Shown: piece by piece, positions 58,169 through 60,016 of the stretch
Layout: every line of letters begins with the position of its first letter
How positions within the stretch are numbered: position 1 is the first letter of the stretch
From: a virus
Virus genome (UHGV): UHGV-0240017
DNA length: 64,000 nucleotides
Strand: one strand, 5' to 3'
Made by a program: the position numbers and the translations under genes
Notes under the pieces: generated by a model
What the model saw: the letters and a program-made list of their open reading frames with translations, nothing else
Databases searched by the model: none
What the model was told of the DNA's origin: nothing

Positions 58169-60016
58169 TTAGTAAGTCGGACGCCAGTCAGTTGCAGCGA
58201 AGGACATACCGAAATCGCTACCAAATGCGCTAGGACCGCTACCGGACAGCGCGAAGTTCTCATTACCCGTGTTAACAAACACAGAGTGAGTGAGACTGTT
58301 CGCTGCGGTAACACCGTTCACCTGGAAGTTGCAGTTTTCGGTGATGTATTCCACCAGTGCTTTACCAAACAGTGGATTGATCGCCAGGTCAGACGCTTCA
58401 CCCGTTACCTGCGGCTGTTTGCTACCGAACATGGACGCAGCCATTTTCAGCAGGTACAGACGCTGGTCACGCGCATTCAGGTAGCGGTGAGAGTAGGACT
58501 GTGCACTGATGTAGTCGATCGCATCGCGTTGGTTGTCACCCACTTTAGTCAGAGCGGAAACCAAGTCCATATCCTGGAAGCTGCGTTTCTGGCTGTTGCT
58601 GAAATACTGACCAGAGATGGTCGGGCAACCGGCAATAACAACATGTTTGCACTCAAAGTTGGTGTCTTTGCCCAGCAGCGCTTTGAAGCGAGTGCTGAAC
58701 TTAGTCGCGCCGTTGCTGGCCATGTTATCCAGGATGTTGAACAGAGTATACAGTGCGTTGGTGTTACCCATCCCGATTTCACTCAGGAGAGTAGACAGAC
58801 CACCGATACCGTTACCTGCACGATGGTTCACCACCAGAGCCGCAGTCGGGTTAGCGAAGGTGTCCAGGCATTTCTCGATAACTTCACGGTTACCGTCGAT
58901 TTTGCTCAGGTCAGGTTTTTCGCTGCCCCATTCTACATACTCCAGAACGCGGGAGAAGCGGCGATCGGTTTTGTTCAGAGACTGCATGAAACGTTCACGC
59001 CAGCCACCGATAGTGGCGATTTGTGCGAACGCGGCCAGTTCAATCAGCTGACGCTCGATAGGTGCCATTGCCCCAGAGGATTGAGAATCCATCAGAGAAA
59101 CAACCACTTCGGCTTCCAGCTGACGCAGGTCCTGAGTACCGTTAGTCAGAGTCTGAGGTTTACCTTTATGGCGGAGGTTGATGTAACCAACACCTGCAAC
59201 GCTCGGATAATTCTGGAGGCGTTCAGAAGAGAACAGCGTCGGGTTATTATCGTTGTTGCCGGTGCGAGTATGGTCAACCACAACCATCAGGTCAGCACGC
59301 TGTGCGGAACCGTTAACGTCAGTTACAGAACCTTCTTCAACTACGCTAACTTGCGCGGTGAAGCGATCAGAACGGGTCATTTTCAGGTAGCCCAGGTAGC
59401 CAGAATGACGACCGAAGATACCCAGTGCAATCTGGCCCATGAGCTGGTTAGCCCATTCTTCGTTCATGGTTTTACCCAGTTCCGGTACGCAGTTCATTAC
59501 CATGAACTGTACGCTTGGCAGATTGTGCTGAGTTGCAATCTGGTTAGTGATGTTGTTCATCACACCTTCTTGACTGAACAGCTGCGCCAGGGTGTAGTAG
59601 TTTTCTTTACCGTTGATTTCGTAGAAACGGATGGACTGGCCATGTTCGAAGAACAGGATGCCGTAGAGCCATTCGTTATGGTTATCGCCAGACGGACCAG
59701 CCACGTATGCAGCAGAACCCATTTCAGAGTTGATGCCGTCAATAACACCCCAGCGGAAGTTACGCAGGTATGTATTCTTCTCCGCCATCTTCTCAATCAG
59801 GCTGGTGAACTGAGAAGCAGTGGAGACGAAAGACATGTATCCGAAAGCTTTATCGAAAGTAGAGATGTTTTTAGACATCCCACCAAAAGCGTTGGCCGCA
59901 TTGGTATTATCCACAGTAGCAGCTCCCGCGCCACCGAAAGACGGAATTGGATCTGCAGCGGAACCAGCAGCACCAGTCACAACGTCGTTTTGATTGTCAA
60001 TAAACTCTTTAGCCAT
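58169..60016 (-). CDS. highly expressed 615-aa protein of unknown function; speculative candidate for the phage-nucleus shell protein (chimallin) or a major virion protein
   Basis: ATG with AAGGA SD; stop-free antisense strand (codon bias); strong terminator 58115-58139; sits among replication and transcription genes. Confidence 0.6.
   Translation of the reverse strand: MAKEFIDNQNDVVTGAAGSAADPIPSFGGAGAATVDNTNAANAFGGMSKNISTFDKAFGYMSFVSTASQFTSLIEKMAEKNTYLRNFRWGVIDGINSEMGSAAYVAGPSGDNHNEWLYGILFFEHGQSIRFYEINGKENYYTLAQLFSQEGVMNNITNQIATQHNLPSVQFMVMNCVPELGKTMNEEWANQLMGQIALGIFGRHSGYLGYLKMTRSDRFTAQVSVVEEGSVTDVNGSAQRADLMVVVDHTRTGNNDNNPTLFSSERLQNYPSVAGVGYINLRHKGKPQTLTNGTQDLRQLEAEVVVSLMDSQSSGAMAPIERQLIELAAFAQIATIGGWRERFMQSLNKTDRRFSRVLEYVEWGSEKPDLSKIDGNREVIEKCLDTFANPTAALVVNHRAGNGIGGLSTLLSEIGMGNTNALYTLFNILDNMASNGATKFSTRFKALLGKDTNFECKHVVIAGCPTISGQYFSNSQKRSFQDMDLVSALTKVGDNQRDAIDYISAQSYSHRYLNARDQRLYLLKMAASMFGSKQPQVTGEASDLAINPLFGKALVEYITENCNFQVNGVTAANSLTHSVFVNTGNENFALSGSGPSAFGSDFGMSFAATDWRPTY

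Follow-up and report, generated by a model that had tools for sequence, protein, structure and literature searches.

A probable chimallin, the shell protein of the phage nucleus, in a jumbo phage related to Asesino and SPN3US

Results

A 615-residue protein resembling the phage-nucleus shell

A minus-strand gene of viral genome UHGV-0240017 (chmA; Table 1), within the window that we analysed (the whole stretch of DNA, 64 kb in length), very probably encodes chimallin (ChmA), the protein from which the shell of the phage nucleus is mainly built, in a chimallivirus related to Asesino and SPN3US (probability about 0.93). The identification draws on sequence homology, a modelled fold and synteny, and by orthology the protein would be expected to assemble into a shell. 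The initial annotation had put the gene forward as a nucleus-shell candidate, a proposal now supported by fold matches confined to chimallins, by broadened-profile matches and by orthology with Asesino gp039; nothing in the comparisons made the protein a virion component, and chimallin similarity, whose absence had likewise been named as contrary evidence, was found by both profile and structure.

The protein has a computed mass of 67.2 kDa and a pI of 5.5, and consists of a folded core (approximately residues 65–572) flanked by tails (1–64 and 573–615) that are acidic, rich in Gly, Ala, Ser and Asn, and predicted to be disordered. Existing annotation is sparse: the PHROG family that it matches carries no functional label, a Pfam scan of ChmA and six homologues gave nothing above noise, and a precomputed tag (PF25677) attached to some database homologues corresponded to no model matched in our local Pfam copy. 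Among the related phage records that were inspected, all but one call the matched gene "hypothetical protein"; the exception reads "protein of unknown function DUF2019".

Table 1 Features of the chmA region, in window coordinates
Feature	Position	Strand	Description
nvRNAP beta'1 gene (non-virion RNA polymerase)	56127..58084	-	Spliced product 535 aa
nvRNAP beta'1 exon 2	56127..56366	-	PHROG 2987; boundary from intron-less allele L005
Group I intron in nvRNAP beta'1	56367..56716	-	350 nt; Rfam RF00028, 56.9 bits
nvRNAP beta'1 exon 1	56717..58084	-	PHROG 2987; boundary from intron-less allele L005
Antisense ORF, 649 aa	58076..60025	+	Not a gene; by-product of chmA codon bias
chmA intrinsic terminator	58099..58141	-	GAGGGACAGGGG-AAAAC-CCCCTGTCCCTT, then T7 run
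chmA CDS	58169..60016	-	615 aa, ATG start; ORF and PHROG 8316, E 1e-232
Shine-Dalgarno AAGGA	60026..60030	-	9 nt 5' of the chmA ATG
Proximal 36-nt promoter-like element	60060..60095	-	AAAATATCTTAGCTAGATATTATCTACGTGA, oriented towards chmA; direct repeat D2
Distal 36-nt promoter-like element	60140..60175	-	AAAATATCTGAGAAAGATATTATCTATGTGA, same orientation as proximal copy
353-aa gene, no assigned function	60225..61286	+	PHROG 3938; counterpart of Asesino gp38 and SPN3US gp245; divergent from chmA
Divergent family B DNA polymerase	61519..63831	-	PF20286, E 2.7e-279; PHROG 2927

Homology and fold point to chimallin

The closest characterized relative is Asesino gp039 (ChmA, 618 aa), which is identical to ChmA at 318 of 626 positions (51%) over the full length (BLASTP); the two differ at about half of their residues, and the N-terminal tail is barely alignable over its first ~45 residues. 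GFP-tagged gp039 forms a ring enclosing DAPI-stained phage DNA (Prichard et al., Sci Rep 2025, PMC11724907). SPN3US ACQ60_gp244 is likewise ~51% identical, in an alignment that covers 92% of the query (tblastn). SPN3US "gp244" has been described as a chimallin so diverged that it is 10% identical to that of 201phi2-1, and a square lattice seen in SPN3US lysates, with a periodicity of 13.5 nm, was linked to it (Laughlin et al., Nature 2022, PMC9365700); the equation of this "gp244" with RefSeq ACQ60_gp244 rests on matching tag and size rather than on an accession, another numbering assigning gp244 to a small subunit of the vRNAP. The tblastn search with ChmA returned 62 records and 62 places, exactly one per related phage genome, and all 62 were jumbo phages of 197–251 kb. 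At the nucleotide level, megablast of the chmA region (58000–60300) covered at most 5% against any phage record, and we take the source to be a previously uncharacterised SPN3US/Asesino-like jumbo phage.

Profile searches reached the solved chimallins after broadening. With phmmer, ChmA matched no PDB chain, and a profile of 16 close-clade sequences retrieved no solved chimallin from the PDB at E ≤ 10. A clade profile (A2) recovered distant relatives of ~600 aa from 1.8 billion proteins, and a combined, broadened profile (A3) matched phiPA3 PhuN (E 2.7e-15, profile positions 49–560) and 201phi2-1 chimallin (E 1.5e-5). Because the narrow profile missed the solved chimallins, membership at the sequence level rests on the broadened one. 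The phmmer check of distant A3 rows against the PDB included P0029, P0032 and P0037 (P0030, P0033, P0034, P0035 and P0038 were left out) and returned no matches, so these three are not trivial drivers of the A3 match. A profile search against chimallin families, one of the checks that had been proposed for the candidate, was thus positive for both PhuN and 201phi2-1 chimallin, and together with the 51% identity to Asesino gp039 it establishes sequence homology to known chimallins.

The modelled fold leads to the same family. An AlphaFold2 model, built from just 14 sequences, reached a pTM of 0.73 and a modest mean pLDDT of 68.9, with core values mostly of 70–90. When this model was compared with the PDB by Foldseek, the top nine matches were all chimallin or PhuN (E 7e-22 to 1.4e-18; TM 0.58–0.70 over 546–622 columns; entries 7sqq, 7sqv, 7sqs, 7sqr, 7sqt, 7squ, 8igg and 8fne), the tenth had an E of 0.097 and nothing else fell below E 0.09. 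The matched structures are those of 201phi2-1 gp105 (7SQQ–7SQS, 8IGG), Goslar ChmA (7SQT–7SQV) and phiPA3 PhuN/gp53 (8FNE), to which ChmA is only 14–17% identical in the structural alignments. As modelled, ChmA would adopt the two-domain fold of the chimallin protomer (alpha/beta at the N terminus, GNAT-like at the C terminus), and it resembles the solved proteins over ~550–620 aligned columns as well as in size, acidity and its long N- and C-terminal tails, here predicted to be flexible.

In chimallins, extended N-terminal (NTS) and C-terminal (CTS1 and CTS2) segments dock on adjoining protomers, and the lattice needs them to assemble. The tails of ChmA are modelled at low confidence, yet contain conserved residues (D55, A57 and F58; F580, G584, S591, G592 and G594), and the profile alignment with 201phi2-1 chimallin starts before the NTS and extends into the CTS1 region. 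This conservation is consistent with arms that dock and take on order only within the lattice. The C-terminal tail comprises 43 residues compared with 50 in 201phi2-1, so a CTS2-type contact may differ from that of 201phi2-1, whose chimallin (69.5 kDa) forms a negatively charged shell.

Gene order and flanking elements are shared with Asesino and SPN3US

As the initial annotation had stated, chmA lies between an RNA polymerase gene (ORF 56585..58084; PHROG 2987, RNA polymerase beta subunit) and the DNA polymerase gene. The order DNA polymerase, divergent gene, chmA, nvRNAP beta'1 and, later, SbcD is common to the window, Asesino and SPN3US; in Asesino, as here, the divergent gene stands upstream of chmA and nvRNAP beta'1 downstream, with DNA polymerase and SbcD close by. 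SPN3US shares both this synteny and the regulatory elements described below, and differs in genus and host. The window also encodes additional RNAP beta-type subunits (42095..44194 and 44194..46431) and a phiKZ-type major head protein with internal head proteins; a tRNA scan of the window found none. Judged on this 64-kb window, the context is that of Chimalliviridae, in which a chimallin is accompanied by two multisubunit RNA polymerases, divided into beta and beta' pieces, in a jumbo genome.

The pieces of nvRNAP beta'1 are 70% and 59% identical to Asesino gp040 (nvRNAP beta'1), whose gene has no intron, unlike that of the window phage. Here a group I intron splits the gene at the catalytic NADFDGD motif, and an intron-less allele (L005) in a public assembly gives the exact intron boundaries and the predicted splice joint ...AATGCT + GATTTCGAT....

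Several cis elements accompany chmA. The terminator stem (58141..58113) has 12 bp, eight of them G-C pairs, and the terminator is kept in three related phages (L007, Asesino and SPN3US), with one compensatory change, A-T to G-C, in the SPN3US stem; directly after it come the Shine-Dalgarno (SD) sequence and GTG start of nvRNAP beta'1. The dedicated terminator of the initial annotation is therefore both present and conserved. Its claim of a strong SD for chmA held in part: the site is there and conserved (where Asesino and SPN3US have TAAGGA, the closer relative L007 has TAAAGGA), but its strength is decent rather than exceptional.

The divergent intergenic region (60017..60224) contains two 36-nt direct copies, 83% identical, each holding the dyad AATATCT-N5-AGATATT (0 expected in shuffles). 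Both elements are conserved in L007, Asesino and SPN3US, and Asesino matches the window in having both of them together with the SD and the terminator hairpin. Across genera it is the directional core GATATTATC-N3-GTGA that is retained; the palindromic arms are kept inconsistently in Asesino and SPN3US. The 64 kb contain just four instances of the motif ATATTAYC-N3-GTGA, each of them between genes and on the coding strand, and two of the four follow terminators. The AT-rich core of the motif, ~10 nt long, agrees with what has been published on early promoters of jumbo phages (PMC7598289). From these sequence patterns we infer that the duplication most likely represents a tandem pair of phage promoters; the shape of the motif, and the poor conservation of the genes that follow its other two copies, make the early class probable. 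What had earlier been called duplicated palindromic elements does include a duplication and dyads, but is better described as tandem promoter-like direct repeats. A sigma-70 promoter scan of 56400..61600 found two sites where 7.3 were expected, which leaves host-type promoters unsupported there and is in keeping with a phage transcribed by RNA polymerases of its own.

The same repeats could instead be operators, and not promoters, through whose dyads a dimeric DNA-binding regulator controls both chmA and the divergent gene. Each window copy carries a 7+7 dyad, a 6+6 dyad is retained in the distal SPN3US copy and the upstream region is shared with the divergent gene; nevertheless, the dyad arms are not preserved in Asesino or in the proximal SPN3US copy while the directional core is kept, the same core occurs without a dyad just past terminators upstream of two other genes, and both 36-nt copies face one direction. 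We therefore regard a purely operator function as unlikely, and favour tandem promoters, with which an operator role is compatible.

Codon usage suggests high expression and bears on the role of the protein

Codon bias in chmA is extreme. The effective number of codons is 36.1, compared with ~46–58 for most of the 49 ORFs analysed, the GC3 of 0.57 is the highest in the window and 39 of the 46 Leu codons are CTG. None of its 615 codons is TTA, CTA or TCA, compared with 3.6% in other genes (P = 1.3e-10). The codon bias and stop-free antisense strand noted initially are thus both real, and codon usage lends good support to the high expression predicted on that basis. The long antisense ORF was rejected as a gene and is explained by this complete absence: because its reading frame is aligned with the sense codons, a lack of TTA, CTA and TCA is all that it takes to keep it free of stops. 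The same codon property was seen only in the genes of the major head protein (4158..6452) and internal head proteins (19310..20575 and 20658..21929), and the bias of chmA therefore matches that of the most abundant virion proteins. Judged from sequence, chmA would be expressed early and at a high level; 201phi2-1 chimallin has been described as "abundant and early-expressed".

Two other roles for the protein were weighed. It might be a paralogue with the chimallin fold, for example an enzyme of GNAT descent or a minor or accessory factor of the shell, with the true ChmA encoded outside the window, which covers just 64 kb of a genome of ~220–240 kb; the weak acetyltransferase fold matches (E 0.4–0.8) could be taken in this sense. 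We consider this highly improbable, since the orthology with the shell-forming Asesino protein is full-length and syntenic, the one-to-one tblastn result gives no sign of paralogues in the clade and codon bias as extreme as this suits a structural protein made in bulk. That chmA encodes, outside the structural gene clusters, an abundant structural component of the virion (tail sheath, tube, head or inner body) is scarcely credible: its codon bias does equal that of the major and internal head proteins and the PHROG family is functionally unlabelled, but no sheath, tube or capsid structure was matched, all significant fold matches are chimallins, the 51%-identical Asesino orthologue localises to the nuclear shell and the neighbouring genes function in replication and transcription. 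An identity as tail sheath or other virion protein was accordingly rejected on fold and orthology.

Discussion

The chmA gene described here is a further copy of an established protein whose family, structure and role are already known, and in that sense the finding opens no new question. What it adds is a function for a gene that databases leave unannotated or label "hypothetical protein".

By analogy with the solved homologues, protomers of ~67 kDa with an N-terminal alpha/beta and a GNAT-like C-terminal domain would form tetramers as the N-terminal arm of each docks on a neighbour, and flexible C-terminal segments would join the tetramers into a square lattice, as known for the shells around phage DNA of 201phi2-1 and Goslar (PMC9365700). 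The closed, negatively charged shell would enclose the replicating phage DNA, keep out host nucleases and keep transcription apart from translation. Many shell copies would be needed very early in infection, a need that the codon usage, SD and terminator of chmA would fit; the terminator may insulate chmA from the downstream nvRNAP beta'1 gene, and the twin promoter-like motifs would presumably serve the injected virion RNA polymerase as early promoters.

The lattice spacing reported from SPN3US lysates is 13.5 nm (PMC9365700), compared with 11.5 nm in 201phi2-1. That chimallins of the SPN3US/Asesino type differ in lattice dimensions and tail docking (including a shortened CTS2), and that twin promoters and dyad operators bound by a phage regulator together form a timed switch for making the shell, is a tentative and rather doubtful extension of the present data. 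The compact conserved cassette of twin promoter-like elements, SD and terminator may be of use in studying or driving early, high-level expression in enterobacterial chimalliviruses.

For the phage itself, ChmA marks its source as a probable nucleus-forming chimallivirus. In nucleus-forming phages the DNA is expected to be protected against host defences that target DNA, among them restriction enzymes and CRISPR-Cas, and such protection bears on host range and on considerations of phage therapy.

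Identity of the shell protein

The proposal that the 615-aa product of chmA is the shell protein (chimallin, ChmA) of a nucleus-forming jumbo phage proved correct, on the combined evidence of fold, broadened profile and orthology. Searched singly, the protein (67.2 kDa, pI 5.5) found no match in Pfam or, with phmmer, among all PDB chains, and PHROGs placed it in family 8316, "unknown function" (E 1e-232). The identical protein occurs, with no assigned Pfam family, on 17 contigs assembled from public sequencing runs. Three homologues (P0004, P0010 and P0012) bear the precomputed Pfam tag PF25677; no model of that accession in the local Pfam copy matched either these homologues or the window protein.

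Profile searches against chimallins depended on the breadth of the alignment: a profile of 16 close homologues reached no solved chimallin, whereas a broadened one did. The clade profile (A2), searched exhaustively by HMM against 1.84 billion representative proteins, retrieved 24 of them, including distant members of ~580–655 aa (E 5e-31 to 3.5e-4), and the 27-sequence alignment including these (A3) matched the phiPA3 chimallin PhuN (E 2.7e-15, profile positions 49–560) as well as 201phi2-1 chimallin (E 1.5e-5). Three distant members searched singly against the PDB gave no match, and are therefore not simply PhuN look-alikes.

An AlphaFold2 model from a 14-sequence alignment (pTM 0.73, mean pLDDT 68.9) was confident over a core of residues ~65–572 and low-confidence in the tails (1–64 and 573–615). 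When the model was compared by Foldseek with 350,542 PDB chains, all nine matches at E <= 0.001 were chimallin/PhuN structures from 201phi2-1, Goslar and phiPA3 (E 7e-22 to 1.4e-18, TM 0.58–0.70, 546–622 aligned columns, 14–17% identity), and the tenth match stood at E 0.097. Weak matches to GNAT acetyltransferases lower in the list agree with the GNAT-like C-terminal domain of published chimallin (PMC9365700). Identity with a virion component and a lack of chimallin similarity in profile or structure were both tested for, and neither was found.

Among 50,697 phage records, tblastn matched 62, at one place each and with at most 53% identity, all of them SPN3US/Asesino-type jumbo phages of Erwinia, Salmonella, Escherichia, Cronobacter and Proteus; megablast of 58000–60300 yielded a single 115-nt patch, and the collection thus contains no close relative of the source phage. 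The matching genes include Asesino gp39, 51% identical end to end (BLASTP), and SPN3US ACQ60_gp244 (RefSeq tag), and the window, Asesino and SPN3US share the order DNA polymerase, divergent gene, chmA, RNAP beta' piece and, further on, SbcD. GFP-tagged Asesino gp039, described as a ChmA homologue, forms a ring around DAPI-bright phage DNA, and the neighbouring gp040 is the non-virion RNA polymerase (nvRNAP) subunit beta'1 (Prichard et al., PMC11724907). Laughlin et al. reported SPN3US "gp244" as a diverged chimallin, 10% identical to that of 201phi2-1, and linked it to a 13.5-nm square lattice in lysates (PMC9365700); this protein is probably ACQ60_gp244, which it matches by tag and size, although another numbering assigns gp244 to a small subunit of the virion RNA polymerase (vRNAP).

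The tails are acidic and rich in Gly, Ala, Ser and Asn, and include positions with little or no variation in the clade (D55, A57 and F58; F580, G584, S591, G592 and G594). Such a pattern would be expected of the N- and C-terminal docking arms (NTS and CTS) described for 201phi2-1 chimallin (PMC9365700), which makes these segments candidate arms.

Features of the chmA region and related elements
Feature	Position	Strand	Details
chmA ORF	58169..60016	-	615 aa, ATG start
Stop-free ORF opposite chmA	58076..60025	+	649 aa
Shine-Dalgarno (SD) AAGGA	9 nt upstream of chmA ATG	-	from sequence
chmA terminator hairpin	downstream of chmA	-	12 pairs (8 G-C), GAGGGACAGGGG-AAAAC-CCCCTGTCCCTT, then T7 run
Two 36-nt direct copies	60060-60095, 60140-60175		83% identical to each other
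Further motif copy tttCAGATATATATTACCTAGGTGA	19208..19229 (core 19208-19222)	-	just past terminator; upstream of 18514..19155
Further motif copy tttCAGATATATATTACCTAGGTGA	10953..10974 (core 10953-10967)	-	just past terminator; upstream of small ORF from ~10904, then 9891..10706
Group I intron	56367..56716	-	exactly 350-nt insertion in alignment with L005, an intron-less allele

Codon selection and the antisense frame

The initial annotation had read high expression from codon bias and a stop-free antisense strand, and both are present. G+C content peaks in the 58–60 kb block (0.505, versus 0.41–0.50 in the other 2-kb blocks), and among 49 non-overlapping ORFs chmA has the highest GC3 (0.57) and an effective number of codons (ENC) of 36.1, compared to 45–58 in nearly all other genes. 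Comparable bias is confined to three genes, all on the - strand: 4158..6452 (ENC 33.0), assigned by PHROGs to the major head protein, and 19310..20575 (35.8) and 20658..21929 (36.9), assigned to paralogous internal head proteins. Because the codons of the antisense ORF coincide with those of chmA, stops can arise in it only from sense TTA, CTA or TCA, which make up none of the 615 codons of chmA and 3.6% of those in other genes (P = 1.3e-10); CTG encodes 39 of its 46 Leu residues. We thus reject the 649-aa frame as a gene; its lack of stops is a sound sign of strong codon selection. Only the same three head genes also have no TTA, CTA or TCA, and since they share this extreme bias, they too should bear long, non-genic stop-free antisense frames.

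Signals flanking chmA

The SD and dedicated terminator inferred from the initial reading are likewise in place. Directly past the terminator hairpin and T run come the SD and GTG start codon of the next gene. The hairpin and T run are kept in L007 (a 71%-identical metagenomic relative), Erwinia phage Asesino and Salmonella phage SPN3US; in the SPN3US stem an A-T pair is replaced by G-C, a compensatory change.

Upstream, the proposed duplicated palindromic elements are present, and are better described as tandem promoter-like direct repeats. Within the 208-nt divergent intergenic region, each 36-nt copy contains a dyad (AATATCT-N5-AGATATT) whose arms are inconsistently retained across L007, Asesino and SPN3US; the core GATATTATC-N3-GTGA and the position of both copies are conserved in all three, despite proteins only ~50% identical. 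The core in the form ATATTAYC-N3-GTGA occurs just four times in the 64-kb window, two of them before chmA; the other two lie on the coding strand, ahead of genes that are poorly conserved and have no known function. A sigma-70 promoter scan gave fewer sites than expected by chance. We infer that ATATTAYC-N3-GTGA is a putative promoter for one of the RNA polymerases that the phage itself encodes, and favour tandem early promoters read by the vRNAP, since the motif matches the description of jumbo-phage early promoters as AT-rich, highly conserved, ~10 nt long and centred near -10 (PMC7598289).

The leader of 60225..61286 (+), the divergent gene, has a separate block (60176..60224) that hardly varies between L007, Asesino, SPN3US and the window; on the + strand it reads GACTGTGAC..TTCCTATGTG..AACC..AAGGAG. 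It contains TATG, the short consensus given for late promoters of phiKZ (PMC7598289), and could be the promoter or leader of that gene.

A group I intron in the adjoining polymerase gene

The nvRNAP beta'1 gene next to chmA (whole gene 56127..58084, -) is split into a 499-aa ORF (56585..58084, -), 70% identical to Asesino gp040 residues 1–456, and a 94-aa ORF (56127..56411, -) matching residues 457–530. Between them, Rfam RF00028 detects a complete group I intron (56.9 bits, gathering score 50, E 8.6e-12). The public contig L005 (SRR7414629) encodes an identical ChmA protein and an uninterrupted 535-aa beta'1; in its alignment, T is the last base of the upstream exon and G that of the intron. 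Joined in silico, the exons give 535 aa reading ...KAPNA|DFDGDQ..., so that the intron interrupts the codons for the catalytic motif NADFDGD. The insertion encloses no complete ORF of 60 aa or longer, and hence there is no apparent homing endonuclease. In contrast to the window phage, Asesino and SPN3US have beta'1 genes without this intron.

Proposed function and phage context

Its orthology and fold predict that the protein forms tetramers and then, via its terminal arms, a flexible square lattice. The resulting shell would surround replicating phage DNA, admitting small molecules and excluding host nucleases, with nvRNAP transcription taking place inside; this mechanism is established for 201phi2-1 and Goslar and, in its localisation part, for Asesino (PMC11724907, PMC9365700). 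Shell protein would be needed in quantity and from an early stage, 201phi2-1 gp105 being "abundant and early-expressed", and this need would account for a codon bias like that of the head proteins, for the tandem promoter-like elements and for a terminator of its own, which would separate chmA from the nvRNAP beta'1 gene.

Two relatives at 77–78% nucleotide identity to 56000..61500 (NZ_CP173450.1 and NZ_CP134650.1) were deposited as non-mobilizable ~222-kb "plasmids" of a human E. coli isolate and a gull Enterobacter ludwigii isolate; they are probably mislabelled jumbo phage genomes carried in, or co-assembled with, the bacterial isolates. The source phage, itself unclassified, is related to the Erskinevirus and Seoulvirus groups, and its chimallin belongs to the known family, with no departure from what is known of chimallins.
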